DNA of 64,000 bases, from the NCBI GenBank assembly GCA_963801675.1, contig CAWDFN010000001.1:4439427-4503426 (forward strand), in the 5' to 3' direction. This DNA comes from an uncultured Planctomycetia bacterium. GTDB lineage: Bacteria > Planctomycetota > Planctomycetia > Pirellulales > PALSA-1355. The translations under genes were made by a program, and so were the position numbers. The notes beneath the pieces were generated by a model, which did no database searches, was not told the origin of the DNA, and worked only from the letters and a program-made list of their open reading frames with translations. Positions 2,615 to 24,336 of this stretch are shown here, piece by piece (position 1 is the stretch's first letter; each line of letters begins with the position of its first letter).

Positions 2615-4525
2615 GTGATCACTGCCAAAGCACCGAAGCGACCGAAAAGTGAAAAGGCCCTGGCCGACGACGCCAGGCGAAAGCCCGTCGTCAAAAACGA
2701 GACGGCGCGGCGCATGATCGCCGAGCATTCCCGCGAGAATGAACTTGCAGCGATGGGTCTGCTCGGAACCTCGACGCCGGCAGGCATCGCAGCCAATGGC
2801 CAGGCCGAGGCGAACAGCGGACCACCGGTAGCGTTCGGAAAACTGAATGGTGCGAAAAAAGAAAAACCCTCCGGGGGCGGCCGAGCCGGCCGTGGCGGTA
2901 TACGAGGAAATGCTGATCCATCTGCCCTCGTAGATTCGCCGGCGGCCGTGCCGCCCGCCGGCCGCGCAGGCCAGTCTGCTTCGTCCGCCGTCGTCAGCCG
3001 CGAGGCGAGTGTCTCGATCCATCAGATCGTCGTGTCGAAGAAAAACCCGCGCAGCGACTTTGACGAAGCCTACATCGACGAACTGGCCGCGAGCATCCAG
3101 GAGCACGGCCTGCTGCAATCGCTGGTGGTGCGGGCGCTGCCCGAAAAAGCGCACCACTACGAGCTGATCGCCGGCGAGTGCCGGCTGCGCGCGTGCAAAA
3201 AAGCCGGACGCCACGCCGTGGAAGTGAAGGTGCTCGACGTCGACGAGCGGACGGCGGACAAATTGCGCGTGATCGAGAACCTGCACCGCCGGAACCTGAA
3301 CGCGATCGAGGAGGCCCGCGGGTTTCAAAGCCTGTGCGCGGAGCACGGCTACACGCACGACGCGCTGGCCGCCGAGCTGGGCTGCTCGCAGGGTCACGTG
3401 ACCAGTCGGATCGGGCTTTTGAAGCTGCCGAAGGCCTGGCAGGACCGGATCATTACGCGCGAATTGCCGCCCACCCACGGCCGCGCGATCATCAAGTACG
3501 CCGCGTATCCCGAGATTTTGAAGCAGATCGAAAAGGACTGGTGCGAAGAAGGCTCGGAGCCGCCCGCCATCGACTATCGGACGTGGGAGCAGCAGGTCGA
3601 GACGGCCGCGGAGATCGCGACGAAGCAGATGTCCGGCCGATCGCACGTGCGGAAGAACAAGACCAGCCACGAGCACCTGTCGGGCAACGTGCCCAACTTC
3701 AACGAAGCCCAGCGCGCCGGGCTCAAGGTGATCAAGATTGGCAGCGGCAAGCAGGCCCACGAGCGGGCCGCCAACGTCGCGCTGTGGGAGCAGCTCTGCC
3801 GCGCCGCCTGGGAAAAGCAGGAAGCCAAAGCCGGCGCCAAGCGCGAGAAGGAGGCGGGCAAAGCCAAGGCCAAGGAGAAGACGCCCGCCGAGCGGTGCGC
3901 GTCGCAGGCCAAGCTCGACAAGGCCCTGCGCGAATGGATCGAGAACTGGCGCACCGACTGGCTGCGCCGCATCCTGAGCGCCCTCGTGCTGGAGGATCGC
4001 ACGCTGGCCGGCCGCGCGGTGCTGATGGGGCTGGCCTACGGCAGCGAGCGCTTCGTCGCCAATTGCGACGAGCGCGTCGAGGAGCTGATCGAGCCCTGGA
4101 CCAAAGGCCTCAGACAAGAGCAGGCCGTGGCCGCGGTCGAGCCCGACAACGTAATCGAGGTCCTCGCCCAAGTTGCCAGCGAGTGGGTGTGGAACGATTT
4201 GCAGGCCGAGAAGGAGCCCGGCAGTTGGCACGGCCGCGCGCTCCACGAGGACGCGATCGAGGCCCTGGCCGAATCCGCCAAGATCGACCTGGCCGAATTC
4301 TGGGCAGTCTCGGCCGACGACGAGGCGCCGTATGCCGAGCAGCTCTTCAATCGCCACACCACCGCCGACCTGGTCGCGTTGTGCGAGGAGCTGAAAGTCA
4401 AAACCGGCGCCACCAAAAAGACCGAGCTGGTCGCCGCCCTCGTCGAGTCAGAGGCCACGTGGAAACGCCTGCCCAAAGCGATCAAGCCGGTGGCAATCAC
4501 GACGAAGACGAAGCGGAAGAAGTGA
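2615..4525 (+). CDS. ParB/RepB/Spo0J-family protein with long C-terminal extension
   Basis: NPRSDFDEAYIDELAASIQEHGLLQSLVVR...YELIAGECRLRA...IENLHRRNLNAIEEA, then HTH (THDALAAELGCSQGHVTSRIGLLKLP). GTG 2615 follows AGGAGA. Confidence 0.9.
   Translation: MITAKAPKRPKSEKALADDARRKPVVKNETARRMIAEHSRENELAAMGLLGTSTPAGIAANGQAEANSGPPVAFGKLNGAKKEKPSGGGRAGRGGIRGNADPSALVDSPAAVPPAGRAGQSASSAVVSREASVSIHQIVVSKKNPRSDFDEAYIDELAASIQEHGLLQSLVVRALPEKAHHYELIAGECRLRACKKAGRHAVEVKVLDVDERTADKLRVIENLHRRNLNAIEEARGFQSLCAEHGYTHDALAAELGCSQGHVTSRIGLLKLPKAWQDRIITRELPPTHGRAIIKYAAYPEILKQIEKDWCEEGSEPPAIDYRTWEQQVETAAEIATKQMSGRSHVRKNKTSHEHLSGNVPNFNEAQRAGLKVIKIGSGKQAHERAANVALWEQLCRAAWEKQEAKAGAKREKEAGKAKAKEKTPAERCASQAKLDKALREWIENWRTDWLRRILSALVLEDRTLAGRAVLMGLAYGSERFVANCDERVEELIEPWTKGLRQEQAVAAVEPDNVIEVLAQVASEWVWNDLQAEKEPGSWHGRALHEDAIEALAESAKIDLAEFWAVSADDEAPYAEQLFNRHTTADLVALCEELKVKTGATKKTELVAALVESEATWKRLPKAIKPVAITTKTKRKK
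2867..2971 (+). repeat. Cruciform repeat, full copy, in-frame within parB
   Basis: Same architecture; right hairpin GGCGGC CGT GCCGCC. Confidence 0.85.
3451..3466. promoter_or_regulatory. parS-like palindrome copy 1 (CATTACGCGCGAATTG), inside parB
   Basis: One mismatch to the CATTWCGCGCGWAATG consensus shared with 6525, 13383 and 20094. Confidence 0.55.
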
Positions 4526-4561
4526 GCCACAGAGGGCACCGAGGTACGAGAGGACGCGACG

Positions 4562-4702
4562 ATGAAATACCAACTCGAACTTGGCGAGGAGGATCGACAG
4601 CTGATGCTGCTCGCGCTTGCGAAATTGAAACACGAGCGCCCGGGCTGGGACGATGCGATCGAAAGAATTGAAGAGCGGTTGGCGCCGCCGGCGGAACGCT
4701 GA
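4562..4702 (+). CDS. Small hypothetical protein (46 aa, MKYQLELGEEDRQLMLLALAKLKHERPGWDD...)
   Basis: ATG 4562 after GAGAGG, protein-like sequence, TGA at 4700-4702. Below the ORF-track cutoff. Confidence 0.55.
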   Translation: MKYQLELGEEDRQLMLLALAKLKHERPGWDDAIERIEERLAPPAER

Positions 4703-5742
4703 TCGCGGGCAGCAACGCCGCGACGACGTTTGCAGCCGGGCTGGTGATCAACAATTCGACGACCAACGGTACGGGTCTGACGATCACGGGCAATGGGTCA
4801 GCGTCGGCGATCTCGGCAATCGGCGGCAGCACGGGCAACGGCATCACCGTCTCGGGTGGCGCGACGAGCGGGCATGGCATCCAGTTCACGGGCACGGGTA
4901 CCGGCAAGGATGCGATCAATGCGACGGGTGGCAACAGCGGCGGACATGGCCTGTCCCTCACGGGCGGCAATTCGGGTTCGGCCCTGTTCGCCGCCGGCGG
5001 CTCGAATTCCAACGGGATCGAATGTTTTGGCGACGGCGTGTCGGACGGCTTCGCCGCCACCGGCGGCGCGACGGGGCGCGGCATTCACGCGCTGGGGGGC
5101 ATCACGTCCGGCGCCGGCGCTCGCTTCGAAGCACGCGCCGGCAATAGTCCGGGGTTTCATGCAGTCGGATTTCTGGCGGGCTGCGGGATGTTGCTCGACG
5201 CCGGCGCCACGGGGGATGGCTTCAAAGCAGCCACGACCGCCGGGGTGCCGTTCCGCGCGGACATCACGGGCAATCTGACCGGAACCGTGCTGGCGTTGGA
5301 TTCGGCCGAGCGGACGGCGATCGCCGACGCGGTCGAAACTGCCATCGTCAACGGTACGGACACGGCGGCGGTCAACGCCGCCATCGCCTCGGCCGTGTGG
5401 AAGGACGCCACCGCGGGCGACTTCACGATCGCCTCTTCGATGGGCAAGAAACTCAGCGACTGGTCGCCGACCGCCGACACCTCGGGGGTGACCACGCTGC
5501 TGGGCCGCATCCCGGGCGCGATCACGCTCTCAGGCGGCAAGGTGCAGCTCGACCTGACCCAGGCCGTGCCGACCAGCAACACCGCGCAGACCGTGGGCGA
5601 CGCGCTGAACGCGGCGCGCGCCCAGGGATTCGGCAAGTGGGTCATCAGCGGAACCGCGTTGACGCTGTACGCCGCCGACGGCTCGACCGTGGTCAAGACT
5701 TTCACCCTCAACTCGGCCACCGCGCCGACGAGCCGGCAATGA
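4672..5742 (+). CDS. Gly/Thr/Ala-rich virion structural (fiber-like) protein, probably 5'-truncated
   Basis: Repeated G-x-G-I/L-x-x-x-G-G beta-solenoid-like units. The frame is open from 4672 (AVGAAGGTLIAGSNAATTFA) with no good start or RBS. Confidence 0.6.
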   Translation, partial: RAVGAAGGTLIAGSNAATTFAAGLVINNSTTNGTGLTITGNGSASAISAIGGSTGNGITVSGGATSGHGIQFTGTGTGKDAINATGGNSGGHGLSLTGGNSGSALFAAGGSNSNGIECFGDGVSDGFAATGGATGRGIHALGGITSGAGARFEARAGNSPGFHAVGFLAGCGMLLDAGATGDGFKAATTAGVPFRADITGNLTGTVLALDSAERTAIADAVETAIVNGTDTAAVNAAIASAVWKDATAGDFTIASSMGKKLSDWSPTADTSGVTTLLGRIPGAITLSGGKVQLDLTQAVPTSNTAQTVGDALNAARAQGFGKWVISGTALTLYAADGSTVVKTFTLNSATAPTSRQ

Positions 5743-5909
5743 CCCCCATACCTACACCCAATCCCATCACCCAGGGCCTGGGCGTCGGGCCGACGATCAT
5801 CACGCAGGGCTTCGGCGCCAGCGCTGCGCCGCGAGCGGTCTTCCAACTGGTCTTTTACATCCGGCCCGAGGTTGACCTGGTCTTCTACGTATTGCAGAGC
5901 TCGACCTGA
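5739..5909 (+). CDS. Small phage protein (MTPIPTPNPITQGLGVGPTIITQGFG...)
   Basis: ATGA overlap with the upstream stop; internal ITQG repeat. Confidence 0.55.
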   Translation: MTPIPTPNPITQGLGVGPTIITQGFGASAAPRAVFQLVFYIRPEVDLVFYVLQSST

Positions 5910-5929
5910 CGCTCGAAGGTTAAACGCGC

Positions 5930-6256
5930 ATGACCAACGGACACATCCACGTAGGCGACATTGGGACGCTGCTGACGTGTTTCTTCCGCAAGGCTGACGA
6001 GAGTGCATTCGACATCTCGGCAGCCACCACGAAGGAGATCAGCTTTGAGAAACCGGATGGAACCAGTTTCCACCGCGCGGGAACGTTTCTTGTCGACGGG
6101 GTCGATGGCGTGCTGACGTATGGCCTGGCGGCCGACGACATCGACGTCGAAGGCTATTGGTGGTTGCAGGGGCACGTGGTCTTTGGCGACGGGACCGATC
6201 TGCGCAGCGATCGGGTGCGCGTGAGAATCCGAAAAAACAACGCGCCGGAAAGTTGA
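5930..6256 (+). CDS. BppU-N-like phage structural protein
   Basis: IHVGDIGT...FDISAAT...FEKPDGT...GVLTY...DIDVEGYWWLQGHV pattern resembles baseplate-upper N-terminal-like domains. Confidence 0.55.
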   Translation: MTNGHIHVGDIGTLLTCFFRKADESAFDISAATTKEISFEKPDGTSFHRAGTFLVDGVDGVLTYGLAADDIDVEGYWWLQGHVVFGDGTDLRSDRVRVRIRKNNAPES

Positions 6257-6401
6257 AAGAGAGCGGGTGACCGCGGAGCTGCAAACTCCGCGGCCACCCT
6301 GAGCACGACGACGTGACTGAGACGCCGCCATACCTACGAAACCCTAGGTTGGCAGCATGGCACCGAGAGACCGCAACGAAGACCCGATGCATTTTCGCCG
6401 C

Positions 6402-6450
6402 GGGTCCTTCCTAGCAGCCTTTTAGCCTTCGGCCCCTACGGGAACCGCCG
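6402..6450 (+). promoter_or_regulatory. Putative cos/packaging region (cosQ-like GGGTCCT)
   Basis: GGGTCCT at 6402-6408 is identical to lambda cosQ. It is followed by CTACGGG, in the intergenic gap just before the small terminase. Confidence 0.45.
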
Positions 6451-6486
6451 ATATTTACCACACAGTTACGTACGGCGTCCTCAGTG

Positions 6487-7025
6487 ATGGCCAAGAAGAA
6501 AACCCGCGGCAAAAAGCCGCGCGTCATTACGCGCGAAATGACGCCGCCGGAACTGCCCGAGGACGTGGTCGAGTTGGTCGTCGGGCTGCTGGTCAACTAT
6601 CGCAGCGTGCAAGTCGTGCGGCGCGAATGCCGCGAGCACGAGGAGCTCGGGTTGACCGACGAACAGACGGACGTCGCGATCGCCGAGGCCTCTCGGCGGA
6701 TCCGCCTGGCCGCGGCCGTCGACTTCGACCAGGAGCTCGGCAAAGCAAAAACGCGGCTCGAAGATTTGTTCGAGAAGGCCGACGTCAAGACTGCGCTGGC
6801 CATCCAAAAGGAAATCAACAAGCTGCTCGCGCTCTATCCGAAGAGCGGCGCGGCGCCGGGCCGGAAGCGCCGGACGATTCGGACGCGCTGGAGGAGCTGG
6901 CGGCGACCCGGGCCCACCTGGTGCCATTACTCGGCGCCGGCCCAGAAGAACTTGCGGACGACCCGCTCGACGAGATCGCCCGCCGCGTCGTGGCCCGATT
7001 CACCGCCCAGAGTACCCGTCGCTGA
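6487..7025 (+). CDS. Putative terminase small subunit (frameshift near 6860)
   Basis: Directly precedes TerL. The N-part (frame of 6484) joins the frame of 6627..7025 (PEAPDDSDALEEL...), whose TGA overlaps the TerL ATG. Confidence 0.6.
6525..6540. promoter_or_regulatory. parS-like palindrome copy 2 (CATTACGCGCGAAATG)
   Basis: Extends to a near-perfect 24-bp palindrome GCGTCATTACGCGCGAAATGACGC (6521-6544). Confidence 0.65.
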
Positions 7026-9100
7026 TGGTCAAAGCAGCCCGCACGAAGCAGTGGTACCAGAGCGAACGCGATCGCGTGCGCCGCTGGCGAAGCGCGCTCA
7101 GCGCGGCCGGCCGCGATATCGGCCGGCTGCCGCCGGTCGTCGACCCGAAGCGCAAGCAGGCCTGCCGCGACAGCCTCAAGCTGTTCGCCAAAACCTACTT
7201 CCCCGAAACGTTCGACCTGCCCTTTAGCGAGGACCACGACCAGGTCATTGAAATCATGGAGCGGGCCGTGCTCGAAGGGGGCCTGTTCGTCCTGGCCATG
7301 CCGCGCGGCAGCGGCAAGACCACGCTGTGCGTGGTGGCCGCGCTTTGGGCCGTGCTCTACGGTTATCACAATTTTGTGCTATTGGTCGGCGCCACCGCGG
7401 TCAAAGCCCGCGACATGCTCCGCACGATCAAGACCGAGCTGCGCACCAACGAACTGCTGCTGGCCGATTTTCCCGAAGTCTGCTATCCGATAGCCCGGTT
7501 GCAGGGCATCAACAACCGTTCGGCCGGCCAGACGTTTGGCGGCAAGCCGACGCTCATGGGCTGGACCAAGGACGAGGTCGTGCTGCCCACGATCGCCGGC
7601 AGCCCGGCCAGTAGCGCCATCATCGGCGTGGCCGGCATCCTGACCGCGTCGCGCGGCGGCCAGTTCAAGCGACCCGACGGCAAGACCGCGCGGCCGTCGC
7701 TCGTCATCCCCGACGATCCGCAAACCGACCGCTCGGCCAAAAGCCCCAAGCAGTGCGACACGCGCGAGGAGATCATCAAGAGCGGGCTGCTGCGAAGCGC
7801 CGGGCCCGGCAAGAAGATCACGATGATCATCCCCTGCACCGTGATCGCGACGGGGGACCTGGCCGACCGGATGCTCGACCGTCAGCTCAATCCCCAGTTC
7901 AACGGCCTGCGCACCAAGACGTTGTACGCGTTCCCGGCCGACATGAAGCTCTGGGAAGACTACGCCGAAAAACGCGCCGACAGCTTCCGCCAGGGCAACG
8001 AGGGGCGCGAGGCGACGGCGTTCTACAAGAAGAACCGCAAGGCCATGGACGCCGGCGCGAAAGTCGCGTGGCCCGACCGGGTCGAAGAGGGGGACCTCTC
8101 GGCGCTGCAAACGGCGATGAACGTCTACCTATCCGACCCGCGAGCCTTCGGCGCCGAGTATCAAAACGAACCGGTCATCGTCGCCGCGGCCGCGGCCATC
8201 AAGCTGTTGACCGCCGCGGAGATCACGCAAAAGCTGAACCATCTCGATCGCGGCGCGTTGCCGCAGTTCGTCTCGATCGTCAACGCCAAGATCGACGTGC
8301 AGCAGGACGTGCTGTTTTGGCTGATCGCCGGCTGGAGTGGCGACTTCGACGGCGCCGTGCTCGACTATGGTACCTGGCCCGAGCAGGACCGGGCCTACTT
8401 CACGTTGACCAGCCTGGCCCGCACGATCGGCGACGAGATCCCCGACGCCGCCAGTCTCGAGGAGCAGCTCTACCAGGCCCTCGACACGCTCGTTGATCAA
8501 CTGCTGGCCCGCGAGTTCCGCCGGGCCGACGGCGCCATTCTCAAGATCGGCCGATTGCAAATCGACGCCAGCTACGAGACCAAAACCGTCAAGAAGTTTT
8601 GCCGGCAATCGAAGCACGCCGCGCAGTTGTTGGCCAGCCATGGCCGCGGCATCGGCGCCAAGGACCGCCCGATCAGCCAGTGGGCGAAGAAGGAAGGGGA
8701 GCGCCGCGGCGAGGAATGGGTGATTGGCCGGGCCACCGACGTGCGAGGCCTGCGCCACCTGACGTTCGACACCAACCACTGGAAAACCGAAACGCAAAAG
8801 CGCTTTAGCACCGCCGCCGGCGGCCGCGGAAGCCTCGCCATTTTTGGCAAACGGCCCGGCGAACACCGCATGTTTGCCGACCACAACACGGCCGAGAAGC
8901 CCGTGATGGTCGCGGCCAAGGGGCGTGAAGTGATCGAGTGGCAGCTGCCGCCGAACAAGCCCGACAACCATTGGAACGACTGCCTGGTCGGCTGCGCCGT
9001 CGACGCCTCGATCGAGGGCGCCGCGGTGCTGGCCGGCAAGGCCCGCCCACCACGGCCGCCCCGGCCATCCCGACGCAAACGTGTGTCCTACATCGAGTGA
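7025..9100 (+). CDS. Terminase large subunit (GpA-like)
   Basis: Walker A MPRGSGKTT, Walker B region LVIPDDPQTD, nuclease IDVQ and C-terminal DNHWNDC. Confidence 0.9.
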   Translation: MVKAARTKQWYQSERDRVRRWRSALSAAGRDIGRLPPVVDPKRKQACRDSLKLFAKTYFPETFDLPFSEDHDQVIEIMERAVLEGGLFVLAMPRGSGKTTLCVVAALWAVLYGYHNFVLLVGATAVKARDMLRTIKTELRTNELLLADFPEVCYPIARLQGINNRSAGQTFGGKPTLMGWTKDEVVLPTIAGSPASSAIIGVAGILTASRGGQFKRPDGKTARPSLVIPDDPQTDRSAKSPKQCDTREEIIKSGLLRSAGPGKKITMIIPCTVIATGDLADRMLDRQLNPQFNGLRTKTLYAFPADMKLWEDYAEKRADSFRQGNEGREATAFYKKNRKAMDAGAKVAWPDRVEEGDLSALQTAMNVYLSDPRAFGAEYQNEPVIVAAAAAIKLLTAAEITQKLNHLDRGALPQFVSIVNAKIDVQQDVLFWLIAGWSGDFDGAVLDYGTWPEQDRAYFTLTSLARTIGDEIPDAASLEEQLYQALDTLVDQLLAREFRRADGAILKIGRLQIDASYETKTVKKFCRQSKHAAQLLASHGRGIGAKDRPISQWAKKEGERRGEEWVIGRATDVRGLRHLTFDTNHWKTETQKRFSTAAGGRGSLAIFGKRPGEHRMFADHNTAEKPVMVAAKGREVIEWQLPPNKPDNHWNDCLVGCAVDASIEGAAVLAGKARPPRPPRPSRRKRVSYIE

Positions 9101-9120
9101 ACCAACAGGAGCGCCCCATC

Positions 9121-9366
9121 ATGGCCAAGAAAAAGAACGGCCGCCCCGTCGGCAGCAAGAACGTCGCCACCGTGGTCAACGTCAAGCCGGCCAACTGCCC
9201 GAACTGCCAGAGCACCAAGCGCACACTCACCGGCAGCCAGACCGTGCAGGAGTTCGAGGGCACGATTGGCAACGAACCCTACAACCGCATCGTGCGCAGC
9301 CGCGCCATTTGCGACGACTGCGGCCAGACGCGGATCGAGCAAAGCTTCGAGTTCCAGCCGGGCTGA
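9121..9366 (+). CDS. Small zinc-ribbon protein (CPNC...CDDC)
   Basis: ATG after AGGAG; basic N-terminus GRPVGSKN; two CxxC pairs. Confidence 0.7.
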   Translation: MAKKKNGRPVGSKNVATVVNVKPANCPNCQSTKRTLTGSQTVQEFEGTIGNEPYNRIVRSRAICDDCGQTRIEQSFEFQPG

Positions 9367-9455
9367 AAAATAATAATGAGAATCTCACTATTACTTGCCA
9401 AATCTTCGCGCGCCGCGCTAGGGGTCGGCCGGATCGTCGCGTAGGTTGAAAGCGT

Positions 9456-9647
9456 ATGAGTTTCGCAGCCCAGATGGTCGCCAAGTACGAAGCGCTGCTG
9501 CTGGCCAACGCCGGCATGACCAGCGTCAACGTCGACGGCGGCCAGGTCGCCTACGCCGATCTGGAAGCGAAGTACAGCTTCTGGAAGTCCAAGCTGGCCC
9601 GCGAAAACGGCAGCCGCCCCCGCGCGGCACAAATCAAACTCGGTTAG
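9456..9647 (+). CDS. gpW-like head completion protein
   Basis: 63 aa, SVNVDGGQVAY motif, located between terminase and portal as in lambda. Confidence 0.7.
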   Translation: MSFAAQMVAKYEALLLANAGMTSVNVDGGQVAYADLEAKYSFWKSKLARENGSRPRAAQIKLG

Positions 9648-9690
9648 GTCGCCTCCTCGTCCTGTCCTCCTCACTTCGCACGGTTCCCGC

Positions 9691-12328: not shown

Positions 12329-12333
12329 GAAGA

Positions 12334-12386
12334 GCCTCCGGCGGCACGCGAGCCGCGTGGGGCAGTATACGAGGAGCCGCATAGGC
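12334..12386 (+). repeat. Cruciform repeat, internally deleted copy
   Basis: Left arm with CACGCG AGC CGCGTG joined directly to the terminal GCCGCATAGGC. Confidence 0.85.
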
Positions 12387-12457
12387 CAGTTTTTGTAAAC
12401 CACTTCCCGCCAACACACTCACCTCTCCAAACGAAAATCGAACGAGGAACCTGAGCA

Positions 12458-13375
12458 ATGTCTTATCCCACCCTGCTGGACATCGCCAAACGAAACGGCT
12501 CCGACCAGGTCGTGGGCCTGATCGACGAGTCGATCAAGTCCATTCCCGAGCTGACGCTCGGCTTCTCGCGCCCCATCAAGGGCGTGAACTTCAAAACCCG
12601 CGTCCGCACTTCGAAGCCCACCGTCGGCTTCCGGAACGTCAACGAGGGCACCGCGGCCACGCACGGCAAAATCGAGAACCGCCTGGTCGAGGCCTTCCTG
12701 ATGAACCCGCGCTGGGAGGCCGACGTGGCGCAGGCCAAGGAGGCCGAGGACGGCGCGGAGGCCTACATCGCCGACGAGGCCATCGCCATGATGGGCGCCG
12801 GCATGGAAACGGTCGCCAGCCAGTTCTATTACGGCCTCGCGACCGACCCCAACAAGGGATTCCCGGGCCTGATCGCCGCCGTCGACGCGTCAATGGTCCT
12901 CGATGCCACCGGCACCACGGCCAACGGCGCCACCAGCCTGTGGGGCGTGCGCTGGGGCCGCCAGGACTGCGGCTTCGTGTGGGGACTGGGCGCCAACTTC
13001 GAGCTGTCCGACCTGACCATTCAGCGCGTACTGGACGGTAACACGCCCGCCAACCCGTTCGACGCCTATTGCCAGTCACTCACCGCGCGGCCCGGCCTGC
13101 AGGTCGGCGCCAAGTTCTCCTGCGGGCGGATCAAGAACATCACGGCGCAAGCCGGCAAGACGCTCTCCGACGTGCTGATCTTCAACTTCCTGGCGCTGTC
13201 GCCGGCCAGCAAGCCGTTCGACATGCTCTTCACCACGAAGCGCGGCCTGAACCAACTCCGCGCCAGCCGCACCGCGACCAACGCCACCGGCGCGCCGGCC
13301 CCCATGCCCACCGAGGTGGGCGGCATTCCGATTTACGCCACCGAGTCGCTCGTCGACACGGAGGCCATCAGCTAG
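12458..13375 (+). CDS. Major capsid protein
   Basis: 305 aa, follows the protease/scaffold. TLLDIAK, GFRNVNEG, FPGL and GGIPIYATESL fit HK97-fold capsids. Confidence 0.85.
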   Translation: MSYPTLLDIAKRNGSDQVVGLIDESIKSIPELTLGFSRPIKGVNFKTRVRTSKPTVGFRNVNEGTAATHGKIENRLVEAFLMNPRWEADVAQAKEAEDGAEAYIADEAIAMMGAGMETVASQFYYGLATDPNKGFPGLIAAVDASMVLDATGTTANGATSLWGVRWGRQDCGFVWGLGANFELSDLTIQRVLDGNTPANPFDAYCQSLTARPGLQVGAKFSCGRIKNITAQAGKTLSDVLIFNFLALSPASKPFDMLFTTKRGLNQLRASRTATNATGAPAPMPTEVGGIPIYATESLVDTEAIS

Positions 13376-13382
13376 GCCGCGT

Positions 13383-13398
13383 CATTTCGCGCGAAATG
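13383..13398. promoter_or_regulatory. parS-like palindrome copy 3 (CATTTCGCGCGAAATG, perfect)
   Basis: Perfect 18-bp palindrome TCATTTCGCGCGAAATGA, intergenic just after the capsid stop. Confidence 0.65.
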
Positions 13399-13417
13399 AG
13401 CAAACGAAAACCCAAGA

Positions 13418-13508
13418 GCCTCCGGCGGCACGCGAGCCGCGTGGGGCGAGATACGAGGAGTCCTTTGTACACCCGCCACCGGTCGCACCGGTCGCCCGCC
13501 GCGTAGGC
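13418..13508 (+). repeat. Cruciform repeat, full copy
   Basis: CACGCG AGC CGCGTG and ACCGGT CGC ACCGGT hairpins. Confidence 0.9.
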
Positions 13509-13548
13509 GCGTTCTTCTCAAGCCAGTCACTTTCCAAAGGTACCGACC

Positions 13549-13956
13549 ATGGGCCCCAACATTCGCGACGCCAACCTGACCGTGCAGAAGGCCTTCCCGG
13601 CCGGCGCGGCCACCAACTATTCCGACGGCATCAACCTCGAGCAATCGAGCCGCGCCGACTTCGTGTCCCGAGCCGAGTTCCTCGTCGAGATCCCGCTGAT
13701 GACCACCGGCGAGCTGCCCGACACCAAGACGTACACCGTCAGCCTGCAGCACGACACCGATCCGGCCTTCGGCACGGCGGTCGACCTGTATCCGAACGTG
13801 CTGGTGGTGACCGGTGCCGGCGGCGCCGGCGCCGCGGCCGTCAGCAAGCGGCTCGGCATCCCGTCCGACATCAAGAGCTACGTGCGCCTGAAACAAGTCG
13901 GCGTGGCCACCGTCGACGCGAGCACCAAGAAAAGCACCCTGTCGATGGTGTTTTAG
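13549..13956 (+). CDS. Capsid cement/decoration protein (Bbp16-like)
   Basis: DANL...SDGINL...LQHDTDPAFGTA...SYVRL pattern; located right after the capsid gene. Confidence 0.6.
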   Translation: MGPNIRDANLTVQKAFPAGAATNYSDGINLEQSSRADFVSRAEFLVEIPLMTTGELPDTKTYTVSLQHDTDPAFGTAVDLYPNVLVVTGAGGAGAAAVSKRLGIPSDIKSYVRLKQVGVATVDASTKKSTLSMVF

Positions 13957-13991
13957 TCGCCGGCGCGTCCTGACCACTGACCACTACGCCC

Positions 13992-14351
13992 ATGTCCCTG
14001 TTCAGCAACCAGCTCGCCGCCGGCCTCGCGCAAATCCGCGCGGTGGCCGGCGACGCCTGGGCCTACCAGTGCCCAGCCGGCACGATCCCGACCCTCAACG
14101 CCACGCAAGGAAAGACCCAGTACGAAGCGATCGACGAATCGGGGCTGACGGTCCCGGCCACGGCAACCGACTTCCTGGTGGCCGCGGCTGACCTGGTGAT
14201 CAACAGCCAGGCCGTGCACCCGGCCCCTGGCGATCGCCTGTCCCGCGGCGGCCGCGTGTTCGAAGTCATGCCGCTGGGCAATGAGAAGTGCTTTGTGTTC
14301 AGCGACCCCGACGGCAGCCAACTGCGGATCCACACCAAGCAAATCGCCTGA
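13992..14351 (+). CDS. Head-tail joining protein
   Basis: Position; DFLV..DL...PAPGDRL...FEV...LRIHTK motifs. Confidence 0.7.
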   Translation: MSLFSNQLAAGLAQIRAVAGDAWAYQCPAGTIPTLNATQGKTQYEAIDESGLTVPATATDFLVAAADLVINSQAVHPAPGDRLSRGGRVFEVMPLGNEKCFVFSDPDGSQLRIHTKQIA

Positions 14352-14821
14352 TGCCCACGAAAATAGACAACCCGGCCCGCCTGACGCAGATCGCCGACCA
14401 GATCGTCGACGTGCTCAACGAGGGGGAATTCAGCCAGGACTTCGAGGCCAAGCGCTACTTCAGCCCGCGCTTGGCACTCGACGAACTGGCCGCCGACGGC
14501 TTGCGCGTGGCCGTGTTCAAGGCGGGTATTCGCCGAACCAACCTGACCCGCACCAGCAAACAATTCGAATTCGACGTCAACGTGAGCGTGCTGGCCAAGC
14601 TGAACCCCGAGAAAGACGAAGACGAGCTCGGCGACGAATGCCTGGCCCTGGCCGAGGAACTGGCCGAGGTGGTTGAAAACACGCCGCTGGCGCGCCTCAC
14701 CGACGGCAGCCGACCGATCCAAACCGACACCCACATTCGCGCGTCCTATTCGCCCGAACACTTCGTGCAAGAACGCGTCGTGCTGTGCGACGCGGTCTTC
14801 TCCTACCGGATTTTGGGGTAA
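14351..14821 (+). CDS. Tail terminator-like protein
   Basis: TGATG overlap with the upstream gene; size and position in the neck cluster. Confidence 0.55.
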   Translation: MPTKIDNPARLTQIADQIVDVLNEGEFSQDFEAKRYFSPRLALDELAADGLRVAVFKAGIRRTNLTRTSKQFEFDVNVSVLAKLNPEKDEDELGDECLALAEELAEVVENTPLARLTDGSRPIQTDTHIRASYSPEHFVQERVVLCDAVFSYRILG

Positions 14822-14832
14822 GCAGCTAAGCA

Positions 14833-15324
14833 ATGTTCGGCCTGGCCTACAACGCAACCGATTCCTTCTTCGATCGCCCCAAGGTGATGGAGGCCTGCAA
14901 AACGGCCGGCCGTCAGAACCTGGGCCGCGCAGGCGCGCACGTGCGCACCGCCGCCCGCGATCTGCTGCGCAAGAGCGGCGCGAAGCGTGGCCGGCCCGTG
15001 AAAGGCCAGCCGCGCAAACGAGACTCGGCCAAACCGGGCGAGCCGCCGCGCAAGCACGAAGGCGGCCTGCGCGACGGCGTGTGGTTCGCCTACGACTTCG
15101 CGCACGACAGCGTCGTGGCCGGACCCGTGCGCTACAACGGCGACCAGGGCGCCGTGCCGGGGCTGCTCGAACACGGCGGCACGATCACGCGCACCATCAA
15201 AGTTCGCGGCCACCGCTTCCGCAAGACGCTGCGGTACCACAAGTTTCCCTACATGGGCCCGGCGCTGGAGCGCGTCGCCCCAACGTTTCCCAATCTGTGG
15301 GCCAACACCGTCCGCGACCACTGA
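14833..15324 (+). CDS. Neck/tail-completion (HK97 gp10-like) protein
   Basis: SAKPGEPPRKHEGGLR, LLEHGG and PYMGPAL motifs. Confidence 0.7.
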   Translation: MFGLAYNATDSFFDRPKVMEACKTAGRQNLGRAGAHVRTAARDLLRKSGAKRGRPVKGQPRKRDSAKPGEPPRKHEGGLRDGVWFAYDFAHDSVVAGPVRYNGDQGAVPGLLEHGGTITRTIKVRGHRFRKTLRYHKFPYMGPALERVAPTFPNLWANTVRDH

Positions 15325-15350
15325 CCACCACCAACCGAACGAGATGAACC

Positions 15351-15794
15351 ATGGCCGACAAAAAGCTACTCGGCGGCGAGTGCAAACTCTACCGCAACTC
15401 GGGCACCTACGGCTCGCCCACGTGGAACGAAATCACCAACGTCGAAGATCTGTCGATGCCCAACTCGAAGGGCCGCGGCGAATTCAAGGTGCGCGGCAGC
15501 AAGTACGTCAAAAAGCGCGGCGCCAAGATCGAGGCCGCGCTCAACTGGAAGCAGATCTACGACCCGGGCGACGACGATTTCACCGTCCTGCTGGGCAGCA
15601 TGAACAGCGGCACCATTCTCGACCTGGCCTGCGTCGACGGGGCCATCGCCACCAGCGGCACCCAGGGCCTGCGCGCCGACATGGAAGTGATGGAATTTCC
15701 GCTCGACGAGCCGCTGGAAAGCGGCGTCTCGATCGCCGTCGTCGCCGAAGTGGCCATCAGCGCCAACGAACCGACCTGGATGACCGTCGCCTAG
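15351..15794 (+). CDS. Tail tube protein
   Basis: LGGECKLYRNSG...PTWNEITNVEDL; size and position. Confidence 0.75.
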   Translation: MADKKLLGGECKLYRNSGTYGSPTWNEITNVEDLSMPNSKGRGEFKVRGSKYVKKRGAKIEAALNWKQIYDPGDDDFTVLLGSMNSGTILDLACVDGAIATSGTQGLRADMEVMEFPLDEPLESGVSIAVVAEVAISANEPTWMTVA

Positions 15795-15825
15795 ACCGCG
15801 AGCCGCGGTGGGCGATGTACGAAGA
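15795..15825 (+). repeat. Cruciform repeat, left-arm remnant
   Basis: ACCGCG AGC CGCGGT GGGCGATGTACGAAGA. Confidence 0.75.
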
Positions 15826-15861
15826 AGACTGACCACTAACCACTGACCACTGGACACAACC

Positions 15862-16212
15862 ATGCTCACCCAAGATCAGCTCGCCGCCCTGCGGGCCCGG
15901 GCCGCCACGCGCGTCGCCGGCTTGCACACGCCCAAGCAGCTCGAGCACGCCTACCTGGAAGTCACGCCGGCCGAGATCATCGCCGTCTGCGACCAGGCCC
16001 GGCCGGCCAGCGACGACCAGGCCACGCTGCTCGCCGCGCAGCAAAAGGTCGCCGAGCTGCGGTTCGGCTCCGCCAACGCCGGCGCCCAGGCCGAGTTCGT
16101 TTACGTCCGCGCCAGCGACGTGCTGTTCGTTTGCGACCAGGTGCCATCGCCGACGCTGACGAGTGCGGCCGCACCGGACGCCGCCCACGCCGCCAGCGAT
16201 CACGACGAGTAG
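15862..16212 (+). CDS. Hypothetical phage protein
   Basis: Co-oriented ORF with GC3-rich codons and an internal VCDQ repeat. Confidence 0.6.
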   Translation: MLTQDQLAALRARAATRVAGLHTPKQLEHAYLEVTPAEIIAVCDQARPASDDQATLLAAQQKVAELRFGSANAGAQAEFVYVRASDVLFVCDQVPSPTLTSAAAPDAAHAASDHDE

Positions 16213-16229
16213 CAAACGACAAAAAAGAT

Positions 16230-16328
16230 GCCTCCGGCGGCCCGGTAGGACCGGGTGCCCGTTAAAAACGCTCCGCGTTTTTCCTCGTAAATCGCCCGTG
16301 GCGGCTCGCCACCGCCGGCCGCGCAGGC
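16230..16328 (+). repeat. Cruciform repeat, variant full copy
   Basis: CCCGGT AGG ACCGGG and GTGGCG GCT CGCCAC hairpins, same termini. Confidence 0.85.
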
Positions 16329-16357
16329 CAATAAGACAGGCCAGTAAGAGTTGAAAA

Positions 16358-16851
16358 ATGGCTTCCAAGATCAACGACGACCTGTCGTGCAACCGGTTGA
16401 CGCCCAAGTCGTTTGACCCGCCGTCGGGATGTATTACGGACGACGCGATCCCGTCGAGGCGCAAATCCAGGCCACGAAGGTTCAGCACCAGCAGCGGGGC
16501 TCGTACGCGCAAGCCAGCGCCACGACGACGACGGCCGCCACGATCCCCATCTTTACCGCCCGCTTCGCCGGGACGCTGATCGACTTCGTGGCCGGCGTGG
16601 TGGGCGTGCTCACGGGCAACGCCACGACCACCGTCGACCTGAAGAAAAACGGCACGACGGTCCTGTCGTCGACGATCGTGCTGGACAACGCGAACACGGC
16701 CCGCGTGGTGGAGGCCGCCACGCTCAACCCGGCCGCGGTCGCCTACGTCGCCGGCGACGTGTTCGAGCTGGTGATGACCGTCAACGCCGGCAGCGGCGCC
16801 CTCGGCACCGGCTTCTTCTGCGAAGCCCGTTTCAACGAAAAGAGCCAATAA
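16358..16851 (+). CDS. Phage structural protein (frameshift near 16450)
   Basis: MASKINDDL...GCITDDAI joins EAQIQATKVQHQ...TVDLKKNGTTVLSS in the next frame. Confidence 0.55.
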
Positions 16852-16856
16852 GAACT

Positions 16857-16951
16857 GCCCTGCGCGGCCGGCGGCCGGTACGACCGGCGGCGAATATTAC
16901 AAAGACTTCCTCTTATACCGCCCCACGCGGCTCGCGTGCCGTCGGAGACTC
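16857..16951 (-). repeat. Cruciform repeat, full copy in inverted orientation
   Basis: Reverse complement reads GTCTCCGACGG-CACGCG AGC CGCGTG-GGGCGGTATAAGAGGAAGTCTTTGTAATATTCGCC-GCCGGT CGT ACCGGC-CGCCGGCCGCGCAGGG. Confidence 0.9.
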
Positions 16952-16988
16952 TTCACTCCCAAACCCCCAACCGAAACGCTCCCAATCC

Positions 16989-17495
16989 ATGGCCCACAAA
17001 TTCACCGACGCGACCGGCACCGACTGGCTGGTGGCGGTCAACGTCACCACGATCAAGCGCGTGCGCGACTTGCTCAAAGACGACGACGGCACGCCGGTCA
17101 ACCTGCTGGCGGTCGTCGAGAAGAAGGGCACGTTGATGAAGCAGCTGGCGACCGATCCCGTGCTGCTGGTCAACGTGGTGTACGTGCTGTGCCAGAGGCA
17201 ATGCCAGGAGCGGAACATCAGCGACGAGCAGTTCGGCGAGCTGATGGCCGGCGACGTGATCGAGAGCGCTACGGTCGCGCTGCTGGAGGACCTCCGCGAT
17301 TTTTTCCCGAAAGGCCAACGCGAACTGATCGGCACCGCGCTGGCCAAGCTGAAAAAGTTCGAGGCCCTGGCACTGGAAAGAGCGCGCGAGCGCGTCGACT
17401 CGCCCGAATTCGACGCCGCCATCGAGCGAAGGATTACCGAGGCGTTCGCGGAGTTGAACGGCTCATTTACGAGCTCGCCGGCGTCGCCGGGGTAG
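16989..17495 (+). CDS. Tail assembly chaperone (G-like)
   Basis: MAHKFTDATGTDWLVAVNV...LRDFFP; located between tail tube and tape measure. Confidence 0.75.
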   Translation: MAHKFTDATGTDWLVAVNVTTIKRVRDLLKDDDGTPVNLLAVVEKKGTLMKQLATDPVLLVNVVYVLCQRQCQERNISDEQFGELMAGDVIESATVALLEDLRDFFPKGQRELIGTALAKLKKFEALALERARERVDSPEFDAAIERRITEAFAELNGSFTSSPASPG

Positions 17496-17731
17496 ATCCC
17501 GGTCCGCACACGCTCCGCGAGCTGCTGTGGATGGCCGACGGCGTACGGCGCGACGAGTGGCAGCGCACGAGCCTGCTGGCCGCGCTCATCCACAACCAGT
17601 GGCGGAAGAAACATCAGATGCGCGATCCGCGCCACTTCAACCCCTTCGAGACCAGCGGCCGAGGCCACGGGCGGCTCACACCGCGCACCATTCACCGGCT
17701 CAAAGCGTTCCTGCCCGACCACGGCGGGTAG
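17450..17731 (+). CDS. Tail assembly chaperone T-like segment (-1 frame, overlapping G)
   Basis: ERLIYELAGVAGVDPGPHTLRELLWMADG... in the -1 frame, overlapping the 3' end of the chaperone. Confidence 0.6.
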   Translation, partial: GVERLIYELAGVAGVDPGPHTLRELLWMADGVRRDEWQRTSLLAALIHNQWRKKHQMRDPRHFNPFETSGRGHGRLTPRTIHRLKAFLPDHGG

Positions 17732-17753
17732 CACCCGCGGGCGATGTACGAAG
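17724..17753 (+). repeat. Cruciform repeat, left-arm remnant overlapping a stop codon
   Basis: GCGGGT AGC ACCCGC GGGCGATGTACGAAG. Confidence 0.75.
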
Positions 17754-17804
17754 TTCTGTCCTGATCACTGACCACTAACCACTGACCACCAACGACTGCT
17801 TCCC

Positions 17805-19925
17805 ATGGGTCTCGGTTCCCAAATCCGCGCCGGCGCAGCCTACGTCGAGATCACAACGCGCAACGGCGCCCTGGTCAAAGGCCTGAAGAGCGCGCAGAAG
17901 TCGATCAGCGGCTGGGGCACGAGCGTCCGCTCGGCCGGCCTGAAGGTGGCAGGCGCCGGCGTGGCGGCCGTGACGGGCTTTCTGGGCTTTGCCAAGACGT
18001 TTGCCGACGCCGGCAGCGAACTGGTCGATATGAGCCAGCGGACTGGTATGTCGGTCGAAGCGCTCAGCGAGCTGGGTTACGCAGCCGATCAGAGCGGCGC
18101 CGACATGGAGACGTTGGAAGGCGGCGTCAAGAAGATGCAGAAGGCGATCGGCGACGTCGCCGGCGGGAACAAAGACACCGAGCGCAGCTTCGACATGCTC
18201 GGCATCAGCATGGAGGACCTGAAGGGCAAAACGCCCGACGAACAACTGACCATGTTCGGCGAGGCCCTGTCGAAGATCCAAGATCCGCTCGTCAAGAACA
18301 ACCTGGCAATGGACGTCTTCGGGAAGACCGGCACCAAGCTGCTGCCCATGTTCGAGGGGGGCGCCGCGGGCATGGCCGCCCTGCGCGAGGAGGCCAAGCG
18401 TTTGGGGCTGGCCTGGGACACCGACACCGCCAAGTCGGCCGAGGCATTTGGCGACGCGATCAGCACCGTCTGGAAGTTGATCAAAATGGTGTCGATCAGC
18501 ATCGGCGGCGCGCTGCTGCCCGATATGAAGCAGCTCGCCGCCACCGTCACCGAGGTCACCAGCAACACGATCGCGTGGATTAAGGAAAACCAAGATTTCA
18601 TCCGCCTGGTGTTTCGCATCGCGATTGGCGTCGCCGCCGCGGGCGCCGCGCTACTCGCGCTGGGCTGGGTATTGACCACGATCGGCGCCGCGTTGGCGAC
18701 CGGCGTCACGATCGCGGGCCTGTTCGGCACGGCCGTCAGCGTGCTGGGCGGCCTGCTGGCGTTTGTCCTTTCGCCGATTGGCCTGATCACGACGGCCCTG
18801 ATCGCGGGCGCCGCCATCTGGGCCCTTTACACCCAATCGGGCCAGGCGGCAGTCGGCGGTTTGACCAGTTTGTTTGGAGATCTGCTGTCGACGTTCACGC
18901 AAACGTTCGGGGGCATTAAAGACGCACTCCTGGCCGGCGACCTGGCCCTGGCTGGCACGATCGCGGTCGCCGGCCTGCGCGTGGCACTGCTGCAAGGCGT
19001 GGCGGCGCTATCGGAGGCCGTGGGCGGATCGTTCGGCGACTTCCTCGGCACGATCGGCACCCAGATCGCCGGCGGCGACTTGGCGGGCGCCTGGAGCACG
19101 GTAGTCACCGGCATGGCCAACCTGTGGGCCGGCTTCGCCGAGGGACTGGTGGCCGTGTTCACGGTCGCGGCTCGCGCGATCATTGATATGTGGCAGGGCA
19201 TCGAGAACAAGCTCACGAAATTTTTTCTGAAGTACGGCAACAAACGCTTGCTCGGCGTCGACATGAAGGCCGAGCAGGCCCGAGCCGAGAAGGCCCGCCA
19301 GTCGGGCATCGACGTCACGCAGCGCGAGATCGCCACGGCGAAGGAGGACCTGGCGAAGGCCCAGGCCAACGGCGGCTCGTTCGTCGACCAGAACGGGCAA
19401 ACCGCCACGACCCAAGAGCTCGAACGGTTCCTGACCGGTTTGGAAGCCCGGCTGGCCCAGTTGCAGGACGAGAAGCCCGACGTCAAAGGCGACGCGACGA
19501 AGACGGCCGAAGCCATCACCGCGGCCACGGCCGACGCGCTGCGCGGCAAGCTCGACAACCTCGACGCAGCCGCCCAGGAGCGGACGCGTGCCGCCGGCGA
19601 GAACTTTCGCAACCGGACCCGCGGCGGCGCGGACGGCGCCAATGACGCACTGGCCAAGGCGCAGGAAGAGCTCGACGCGGCGGTCGAGGCGGCAAAAGCC
19701 GCGCGTGACGCGGCCACCGAAGACCGTGCCAAGAATGCGCAGAACGGCGCGCCCGATCCCAACGAGCTCGACAAGCTGGCCAAGGACAAGATCGACGTCT
19801 CGGGCACCTTCAACGCCGCGGTCGTCGGCGGCCTGGGCGGCGGCGACGTGCAGGCGGAAATCGCCGCCAATACCAAGGCCACCGCCACCAACACCAAGAA
19901 AAACAACAAGCCCGTGCACAGCTAG
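17805..19925 (+). CDS. Tail tape measure protein (706 aa)
   Basis: IRAGAAYVEI N-terminus, DMSQRTGMSVEALSELGYAA, FGKTGTKLLPM, hydrophobic mid-region. Confidence 0.9.
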   Translation: MGLGSQIRAGAAYVEITTRNGALVKGLKSAQKSISGWGTSVRSAGLKVAGAGVAAVTGFLGFAKTFADAGSELVDMSQRTGMSVEALSELGYAADQSGADMETLEGGVKKMQKAIGDVAGGNKDTERSFDMLGISMEDLKGKTPDEQLTMFGEALSKIQDPLVKNNLAMDVFGKTGTKLLPMFEGGAAGMAALREEAKRLGLAWDTDTAKSAEAFGDAISTVWKLIKMVSISIGGALLPDMKQLAATVTEVTSNTIAWIKENQDFIRLVFRIAIGVAAAGAALLALGWVLTTIGAALATGVTIAGLFGTAVSVLGGLLAFVLSPIGLITTALIAGAAIWALYTQSGQAAVGGLTSLFGDLLSTFTQTFGGIKDALLAGDLALAGTIAVAGLRVALLQGVAALSEAVGGSFGDFLGTIGTQIAGGDLAGAWSTVVTGMANLWAGFAEGLVAVFTVAARAIIDMWQGIENKLTKFFLKYGNKRLLGVDMKAEQARAEKARQSGIDVTQREIATAKEDLAKAQANGGSFVDQNGQTATTQELERFLTGLEARLAQLQDEKPDVKGDATKTAEAITAATADALRGKLDNLDAAAQERTRAAGENFRNRTRGGADGANDALAKAQEELDAAVEAAKAARDAATEDRAKNAQNGAPDPNELDKLAKDKIDVSGTFNAAVVGGLGGGDVQAEIAANTKATATNTKKNNKPVHS

Positions 19926-19930
19926 TCGAA

Positions 19931-20078
19931 GCCGCCGGCGGCCGGCAAGGTGCCGGTGCCAGTAGACGCAGCAAGCGCGCCAAACTGCGGCGCGCAGCAA
20001 CAACCGCACTCACCCAACGCACGATGTTCCACTGACGTATTTCGCCAGCCGGGGCTCCCGGCAGCCCGCCGCGTAGGC
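19931..20078 (+). repeat. Cruciform repeat, long-spacer variant
   Basis: CCGGCA AGG TGCCGG and GCCGGG GCT CCCGGC hairpins; terminal GCCGCGTAGGC. Confidence 0.8.
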
Positions 20079-20093
20079 GCGTAACTCTCCCAC

Positions 20094-20109
20094 CATTTCG
20101 CGCGTAATC
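20094..20109. promoter_or_regulatory. parS-like palindrome copy 4 (CATTTCGCGCGTAATC)
   Basis: Intergenic after the tape measure; one mismatch to consensus. Confidence 0.6.
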
Positions 20110-24231: not shown

Positions 24232-24277
24232 CGGAATCATAATCCGCGTGTCCGGGGTTCGAATCCCTGCGCCGCTA
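24232..24277 (+). other. att core: 3' half of tRNA with CAT anticodon (Met/Ile2)
   Basis: CGGA-ATCATAA-TCCG anticodon arm, GGGGTTCGAATCCC T-arm and acceptor 3' strand. No D-arm or 5' acceptor strand upstream. Confidence 0.85.
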
Positions 24278-24336
24278 CTGAAGGGAATGGATTGCAATCG
24301 TTGCCGTTCTTCGTGGTTTCGGCACTTGATTGCCGC

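Follow-up and report, generated by a model that had tools for sequence, protein, structure and literature searches.

A planctomycete prophage encodes an orphan ParB protein with predicted private parS-type sites dispersed over the phage genome

The stretch of DNA analysed here (the window) comprises 64,000 nt, C1:4439427-4503426, of the genome of an uncultured Planctomycetia bacterium (7.94 Mb in four contigs), and carries at its left end a 30.7-kb prophage that encodes a ParB-family protein and in which a short palindrome recurs. The element begins to the left of the window, where positions are given as negative coordinates. It is bounded by 52-bp direct repeats, with copies at -6438 and 24232, which constitute the 3' end of the tRNA-Met gene (L001:13534-13608) that served as the integration target. 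The parB gene most likely starts at the GTG at 2615, where a preliminary description of the window had also placed it, and the N-terminus of its product is also present in the protein P0003. The features on which the argument depends are the following (ORF, open reading frame; HTH, helix-turn-helix).

-6438 to 24283 (in-window part 1 to 24283), + strand: prophage, 30.7 kb, bounded by the 52-bp direct repeats
-4153 to -3170: tyrosine integrase gene (Phage_integrase match)
-3035 to -3020 (C1:4436391-4436406; L002:3965-3980): site 1, CATTTCGCGCGAAATA, about 135 nt downstream of the integrase gene
2615 to 4525, + strand: parB, 636 aa (ParB_N 2.7e-20, HTH_ParB 3.4e-16, phrog_3264 1.3e-34)
3451 to 3466: site 2, CATTACGCGCGAATTG, one mismatch, inside parB and encoding I-I-T-R-E-L just past the HTH recognition helix
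6487 to 7227: small-terminase (terS) ORF, from ATG 6487
6525 to 6540: site 3, CATTACGCGCGAAATG, codons 13-18 of the terS ORF
7025 to 9100, + strand: large terminase (TerL), gpA type (GpA_nuclease 6.4e-21)
12458 to 13375, + strand: major capsid protein (PF20911 8e-15)
13383 to 13398: site 4, CATTTCGCGCGAAATG, perfect palindrome, 7 nt past the major-capsid stop (8 nt to the 14-mer core)
17805 to 19925, + strand: 706-aa ORF in the tape-measure position, no Pfam match, with homologues in two of the related phage records introduced below (G406 and G408)
20094 to 20109: site 5, CATTTCGCGCGTAATC, one mismatch, 168 nt past the tape-measure stop and about 17 nt before ATG 20127
24232 to 24283, + strand: attR, 52-bp copy of the 3' end of tRNA-Met

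The tape-measure ORF is so named from its size and position only; the prophage further encodes a lambda-type portal and a head-tail joining protein. As had been remarked earlier, no ParA gene adjoins parB: none of the seven PF13614 matches in the whole genome falls in the prophage and no ParA family was found among the prophage ORFs scanned. ParM or TubZ likewise did not turn up among these ORFs, in scans that included no family search aimed at those ATPase types.

The preliminary description had reported a 16-bp palindrome at four positions, from parB to a point after the tape-measure ORF, and a scan of the window recovered all four, with the gaps of 6858 and 6711 bp that it gave between the last three. 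The 16-mer pattern CATTWCGCGCGWAATG (14-bp core ATTWCGCGCGWAAT; full form YATTWCGCGCGWAATR) is, however, matched exactly only at 6525 and 13383, the copies at 3451 and 20094 each being one base off. None of 100 dinucleotide-preserving shuffles of the window produced any exact match. The four sites align on the invariant core CATT.CGCGCG.A.T, and that at 13383 is the sole perfect palindrome among them. The earlier statement that the host DNA of the window is free of copies also holds, as no other copy within two mismatches occurs in the window and the sequences at 13018 and 43521 carry three. Genome-wide, six matches with at most one mismatch were obtained, of which five lie within one 23-kb stretch and one at C1:752418, and the exact 14-mer ATTWCGCGCGWAAT has four copies in 7.94 Mb, all of them in the prophage. 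The palindrome is thus private to the element and, as proposed, has a skeleton like that of parS and the Noc-binding site (NBS). The prophage total is five sites, counting the one outside the window, which falls in a gap of about 390 nt that separates the integrase gene from the first early gene. Consequently, the earlier view that the sites are limited to parB and the late operon has to be given up: they cover the whole prophage, and in related phages they are likewise genome-wide.

The 636-residue ParB consists of a disordered N-terminal 125 aa, a ParB_N domain (about 132-224), an HTH domain (about 227-298) and a C-terminal half of about 320 aa. The first domain matches PF02195 (ParB_N, CTPase fold) with 72.7 bits against a cut-off of 26.3 and the second PF17762 (ParB HTH) with 59.7 bits against 22.6, and by sequence and fold searches the closest relatives in the PDB are Caulobacter ParB and Noc (29-35% identity). 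A structure model drawing on 14 sequences leaves residues 1-125 disordered but is confident from 126 to 630; in it the C-terminal 317 residues combine a small beta unit with long helices and a helical bundle. This half gave no fold match in the PDB (best E 6.1), and the C-terminal dimerisation domain PF23552, which is listed for short ParBs, was matched neither in the prophage ParB nor in its long relatives; a weak Rho_N/HeH-like motif lies near the C-terminal end, below cut-off (E 0.001-0.006). The C-terminal half defines a family: at 50% identity, its members among 1.84 billion proteins reduce to 96 representatives, almost all of which measure 530-750 aa. Among cultured phages none of 62 matching records covers at least 80% of the ParB query, and a search of the phylum for the C-terminal half returned one weak match (G008) among 400 other genomes. 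Within the disordered and variable N-terminal region, a peptide (T/S)(S/T)TPAGIAA is conserved at residues of about 50-60 (window about 2765-2795) and in several relatives, its Thr3 being invariant in a seven-sequence alignment; it may be a docking motif for a partner.

We then compared ten records encoding distant relatives of this ParB (26-42% identity), full-length in G001-G005, namely viral records of 24-46 kb and the bacterial genome G008. In nine of them (eight uncultured viral records and the bacterial genome) the palindrome, either in the same form or as a private variant, is present 4-8 times.

G001: 6 copies of ATTTCGNNCGAAAT
G002: 2 copies of ATCACGCGCGTGAT and 2 hybrids
G003: 8 copies of ATTYCGCGCGRAAT
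G004: 5 sites
G005: 7 sites
G406: 4 sites of the ATTTCACGTGAAAT type
G408: 3 copies of its own variant ATTACGGCCGTAAT and the copy inside parB
G409: 6 sites, with a ParB like that of the prophage in its N-terminal part only
G008: 5 exact copies, of which the 9.4-kb ParB contig holds 2
G407: no sites

Scanning whole records with ATTTCGCGCGAAAT within two mismatches returned 6 matches in G001, 2 in G002, 8 in G003, 5 in G004, 7 in G005, 3 in G406 and 6 in G409, while the reversed pattern used as a control returned none in every record scanned, G001-G005 included. The density of the motif class is 12.15 per 100 kb in the ten family records (46 in 378,735 bp) as against 0.65 in 71 viral loci with other ParBs, 0.18 in host DNA, 0.15 in 80 bacterial ParB loci and 0.20 in 45 metagenome ParB loci, the last two sets serving as negative controls and containing almost only N-terminal (chromosomal-type) ParB matches. 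This amounts to an enrichment of about 19-fold over the viral loci and of 60-80-fold over the host or the 125 bacterial and metagenomic loci. The palindrome or a variant therefore travels with this ParB family in nine of ten relatives, and is far from being equally frequent in host DNA; these were two of the points on which the preliminary description had made its proposal depend. Beside the long parB of G004 lies a second, short gene (L092:7017-7910, minus strand) coding for a 297-aa protein with ParB_N and HTH_ParB domains. In four further loci (L009, L027, L066 and L120), whose ParBs resemble that of the prophage only in the N-terminal and HTH part, the matched region of the gene also contains a palindrome of the form ATT.C....G.AAT; retention of a site within parB may extend beyond the long-ParB family.

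In 9 of 11 parB genes the site is held by the same ParB codons, I-(S/T)-(R/G)-(E/V)-(I/L/M), immediately after the recognition helix, and the copy in parB is always of the variant dispersed over that phage's genome. Minority codons are used to this end: ATT occurs in 8 of the 9 intragenic sites, although it accounts for 5-22% of Ile codons overall, and GAA in 7 of 7, as against 22-42% of Glu codons. In G406 both central codons are synonymously changed to TCA CGT, one in each arm, giving CACGTG, whereas in G002 and G408 the conserved Glu has become Val with retention of the palindrome (ATCAC...GTGAT and ATTAC...GTAAT, respectively). The comparison of synonymous positions that had been suggested for the coding copies thus comes out in favor of the site in parB, where rare codons and mirror-symmetric compensatory changes indicate that the palindrome, and not just the peptide, is kept by selection. 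Bacillus subtilis spo0J offers a precedent, as it likewise has a parS site inside the parB gene itself.

Recognition of parS and NBS has been dissected by Jalal et al. (PMC7383237, also the source of our list of HTH contact residues): the two sites differ at bases 1 and 6, R173 reads G1, Q173 reads A1 given K or R at 179 or 184, and R201 reads C6. Like chromosomal ParB and Noc, the prophage protein combines ParB_N with an HTH and is accompanied by a 16-bp palindrome of TTTC...GAAA skeleton, and of its contact residues S172 and R204 are kept while N178 is replaced by Ser. All 11 phage ParBs have Q173, 9 of them with K or R at 179 or 184, and base 1 is A in every site variant; this resembles Noc/NBS, where Q173 is joined by K/R at 179 and 184 and base 1 is A. 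The phage pairs depart from both known systems at residue 201, which is Ser or Thr as against Gly in ParB and Arg in Noc, and at base 6, which is G (A in G406) as against A in parS and C in NBS. Residue 178 is other than Asn solely in the prophage, G002 and G408, the sole three records with A at base 4. These records do not form one clade, so that three changes are needed and at least two forced, although the numbers are small (3/3 versus 0/7). The host, for its part, has a canonical ParB (LGRGL, GERR, R173, G201) encoded in a canonical parAB operon, its sole near-consensus parS, AGTTTCACGTGAAACA, adjoins that operon at C1:2739937, and no NBS-type site was found in the whole host genome. The comparison of specificity residues with ParB and Noc that had been recommended accordingly sets Q173 against A at base 1 in the phage, and R173 with G201 in the host. 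As phage and host ParBs differ at the specificity residues, and their sites do so too, the earlier proposal of an orthogonal ParB/site pair is well supported by comparison (co-occurrence, covariation and specificity residues), binding itself being a prediction.

We considered whether the palindrome might instead belong to another binder, such as a phage regulator, an RNA hairpin or a restriction/modification enzyme, with its link to ParB reflecting shared phage ancestry only. The records do form one distant clade, which would allow co-inheritance of motif and ParB; our clustering would miss small regulators; and G407 retains ParB without the motif. Against such a binder speak an intragenic copy that rare codons and compensatory changes preserve at a fixed position of parB, a parS/NBS-like motif whose first base fits Q173, and the covariation of residue 178 with base 4 in non-sister lineages. 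ParB is also the only DNA-binding family common to all ten records, which otherwise share TerL, portal and protease. A target of 14-16 bp is too long for ordinary restriction/modification enzymes, and no methyltransferase or Tet/JBP domain was found among the scanned ORFs, the neighbors of parB included. As for a hairpin, the four sites fold no better than shuffled sequences (z from -0.75 to +1.61), leading us to reject that variant, and Rfam gave no match in window 1-25000. We therefore regard another binder as very improbable.

In light of these observations we propose that the palindromes are the cognate parS-type sites of the prophage's orphan ParB, placed so that ParB would reach the whole phage chromosome; we put the probability of this reading at about 0.62. 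On the excised circle of 30.67 kb the gaps are 6486, 3074, 6858, 6711 and 7541 bp, so that the farthest base is about 3.8 kb from its nearest site, and over all records the median gap is 6.2 kb and the smallest 2.1 kb. Their variation in size is below random expectation in 8 of 9 records; combined, none of 20,000 simulations was as even, nor any of 10,000 in which the simulated sites were restricted to gene boundaries. Only 4 of 40 sites outside parB lie more than 150 nt inside an ORF, where 20.7 would be expected (P = 3e-8), by gene calls that are crude (longest ORF plus GC3 filter). In each phage a single site lies inside parB, and a further 3-7 follow one another at gene boundaries around the whole genome, at intervals of about 6 kb. 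When 49 sites were oriented by transcription, the flanks extended the palindrome to Y-ATT...AAT-R with no strand asymmetry. The positions relative to homologous genes differ between the prophage and G406, which implies that coverage is kept and not an association with any particular promoter. An evenly spaced layout common to such distant uncultured phages suggests that ParB coats the whole phage chromosome.

CTP (cytidine triphosphate)-dependent switches of the ParB type are known in chromosome and plasmid segregation, in Noc, KorB and BisD, and in VirB-type regulation. On our reading, the prophage protein is an orphan in the ParB/Noc family with an HTH adjusted to a target other than host parS, and the pair is an ancient trait conserved across a loosely connected clade of temperate, lambda-like tailed phages. 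ParB dimers would load at each site and spread or slide outward in the manner of ParB, Noc and KorB, so that phage DNA alone would come to be covered end to end. With regard to the role of such a coat, parB has the same orientation as the replication genes and lies downstream of or beside them both in the prophage and in G003 (where a gene with a weak HTH_36 match, below the Pfam cut-off, lies upstream of parB; in G409 a DUF5131 gene lies beside it). This placement with early and replication genes leads us to lean toward an early lytic function, in which ParB made along with the replication proteins would organize, compact or shield replicating phage genomes as a mark of self, though we rate the chances of this role as somewhat short of even. 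The wider notion that a clade of temperate phages coats its entire chromosome by an orphan ParB switch and evenly spaced private parS sites as a form of self-marking is more tentative still, and we hold it to be doubtful.

A different role for the same pair is suggested by the KorB/OB system of plasmid RK2, which carries 12 OB sites, and by the stoperators of mycobacteriophage L5, asymmetric sites that follow the direction of transcription and serve as targets of the immunity repressor. In a lysogen, ParB on its sites could silence the prophage genome-wide, with clamps or roadblocks at gene boundaries that block read-through and spurious transcription and could also confer immunity to related phages. 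The sites do lie at boundaries between co-directional genes and cover all modules, and no CI-type repressor was recognizable among the early prophage ORFs scanned. Furthermore, about 840 nt without a confident ORF, together with a 26-nt inverted repeat, precede parB, which makes a regulated promoter of its own possible. KorB, too, is a ParB-family protein encoded on a mobile element throughout which its palindromes recur many times (the phage counterpart being five in 30.7 kb, and 4-8 in each related record), and it silences promoters from distal sites by sliding along DNA as a CTP-dependent clamp (PMC11790492). On the other hand, KorB has the ParA homolog IncC and the locking partners KorA and TrbA, none of which was found or is conserved for the prophage ParB (no KorA-like partner is conserved across the ten records by clustering, which included no KorA profile search); its site sequence is another one, its element is a plasmid and not an integrating phage, and it is only a distant match to the prophage ParB (E 6.2e-8). 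The cluster A stoperators are alike in being short sites repeated through a phage genome, mostly between genes, whereas the 49 phage sites are symmetric and not oriented with transcription. As the sites are also untied to particular promoters across relatives, and the position of parB beside the replication genes suggests early lytic expression, we consider silencing in the lysogen unlikely.

Alternatively, the pair might serve retention of the excised or unintegrated circle without a ParA of its own, by recruiting host ParA or by hitch-hiking on the nucleoid through a tether in the C-terminal half. A ParB-family protein with multiple centromere-like sites is reminiscent of partition, and the conserved C-terminal half with its weak HeH/Rho_N-like motif could bind nucleic acid. 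In phage N15, too, centromere sites are dispersed over the genome: its SopB-binding palindromes are scattered through it, the late region included, and reportedly affect late gene expression. N15 has SopA, however, is extrachromosomal and needs partition, whereas the prophage integrates at a tRNA gene, with an integrase and intact att repeats, and no ParA gene was found in it. Moreover, the translation of the prophage parB lacks the ParA-stimulating motif (L/F/I)G(K/R)G(L/F/I) (PMC12704722), which the host ParB has as LGRGL, and partition needs but one centromere, for which an even spacing of 6 kb is superfluous. This purpose thus appears quite unlikely. The chromosomal systems differ in that the prophage ParB lacks a ParA partner and binding motif, has a half of about 320 aa with no fold match in the PDB in place of PF23552, and has sites spread evenly over genomes of 30-45 kb and not clustered near an origin. 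KorB/OB on RK2 and the Sop sites of N15 remain the closest systems in layout, both with a ParA.

Among phages, the mycobacteriophages of cluster O encode a ParB-like protein and contain a 17-bp dyad in 31 copies (PMC6439249), although that dyad is unrelated in sequence and the available part of the paper draws no link between repeat and protein. According to a 2025 survey, prophages and plasmids commonly carry orphan ParB homologs that have no ParA (PMC12704722), but the survey, in its accessible portion, gives neither sites nor roles for the orphan prophage proteins; members of the present family may already be included in its supplementary tables and trees. A connection to the phage ParBs that activate 5mYOX enzymes and lack a DNA-binding domain (PMC13229309) was rejected, given the canonical HTH and the lack of a dioxygenase match nearby. 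Our literature searches found no account of an orphan phage ParB whose parS sites are dispersed evenly.

Several observations weigh against our proposal that ParB would reach the whole phage chromosome from these sites, the first being an altered nucleotide pocket. Of the class I CTP-pocket residues of Caulobacter ParB (R60, S74, G79, R103, R104, N136 and R139; PMC8367383, whose numbering is used), six of seven are kept, but R103 is Cys, so that the GERR box, retained in 9 of 10 relatives, reads GECR; Q58 is furthermore Asn and Q138 His. In Caulobacter ParB, R103A abolishes CTP binding (PMC8367383). The G-E-x-R box could be aligned in 86 of the 96 representatives of the C-terminal-half family, and R103 is replaced in 24 of these 86 (R 62, T 22, C 2). 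Loading and spreading are consequently uncertain for the prophage ParB, in which clamp-type spreading may be weak, different or absent, and the earlier designation of the protein as a CTPase clamp is not secure. The relatives also include exceptions: G407 has a ParB of the family (26% identity, Q173, box II GESRYRG) with no motif and no intragenic site, and a de novo palindrome search in it (L104/L105) yielded nothing convincing, such that the system may there have been lost or retargeted; G002 has only two perfect and two hybrid sites with a gap of 25.5 kb between; and within 10 kb on either side of parB, the 29% relative L116 has no site and L120 the intragenic one only. The records, moreover, are not independent backbones but one old clade, in which G003 and G005 stand close to each other. 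Single-linkage clustering revealed distant homologs of TerL, portal and protease across all, or nearly all, of the records, making the counts across them non-independent, and we have withdrawn the claim that the motif tracks ParB on unrelated backbones; direct BLASTP of the prophage against G001-G005 had recovered only ParB, the integrase, one CsrA-like protein and one weak TerL match. A TerL search of viral contigs added two short, motif-free loci (L098 and L099) with flanks too short to judge ParB. Small proteins of the Cro/CI type diverge too fast for the BLAST clustering with which other binders were sought, and the crude gene calls affect the gene-boundary statistics. Finally, the support for binding of the sites by ParB is wholly comparative, and integration removes the usual need for a partition system.

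Should the proposal nonetheless be correct, the phage genome would be one continuous ParB-DNA body and ParB clamps would gain a new job in phage biology. They might be a genome-wide immunity repressor that replaces a CI-type protein or, alternatively, provide a protective or organizing compartment for replicating phage DNA, with the new C-terminal domain as the effector; either could reveal what use ParB has to an integrating phage that needs no partition. The locus offers a concrete, testable pair of a defined 16-bp site and a defined protein, accompanied by natural specificity variants (GCGC, CACGTG, GGCC and NN centers; ATTTC, ATTAC and ATCAC arms) and by a layout rule of one site about every 6 kb at gene boundaries plus one inside parB. 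It would add a third natural specificity to the ParB/Noc recognition code and furnish new orthogonal ParB/parS pairs for DNA labeling.

Some further features of the element are recorded here. The early region contains several ORFs without family matches beside a gene for a CsrA-like regulator, which has a homolog in G003:

-1283 to -987 (L002:5717-6013), early region: CsrA-like regulator gene (PF02599 9.9e-10; phrog_9500)

Over about 115 codons the terS ORF looks genuine, beyond which it becomes Arg-rich, while a second frame (6627-7025) stops at the start of terL, pointing to a frameshift, either programmed or an error. Its N-terminal VITREMTPPELP is similar to IITRELPP of ParB because the palindrome is encoded in both, and the similarity of the two genes at the DNA level extends a few bases past the 16-mer. 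The 26-nt inverted repeat upstream of parB occupies 2366-2391 and 2566-2591, with 92% complementarity and 174 nt between the arms; it is unique in the genome and its right end is 24 nt upstream of the parB start. The RNA fold predicted for 2361-2600 has -93.8 kcal/mol, and the repeat may represent either a structured leader or an invertible segment. Another repeat, about 100 bp long and without a match in Rfam, gave 22 genome-wide BLAST matches, eight of which are in the prophage and mostly intergenic:

-2904, -979, 695, 2256, 2859, 12331, 13415, 16952 (reverse strand): copies of the repeat of about 100 bp

One copy lies in frame within the disordered linker of ParB (2859-2977), and a further one, outside the eight BLAST matches and noted by peptide similarity only, is apparently in frame near the 5' end of a 606-aa ORF. 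Two copies differ by compensatory changes (CGGCC...GGCCG as against CACGC...GCGTG), which suggests a conserved hairpin.

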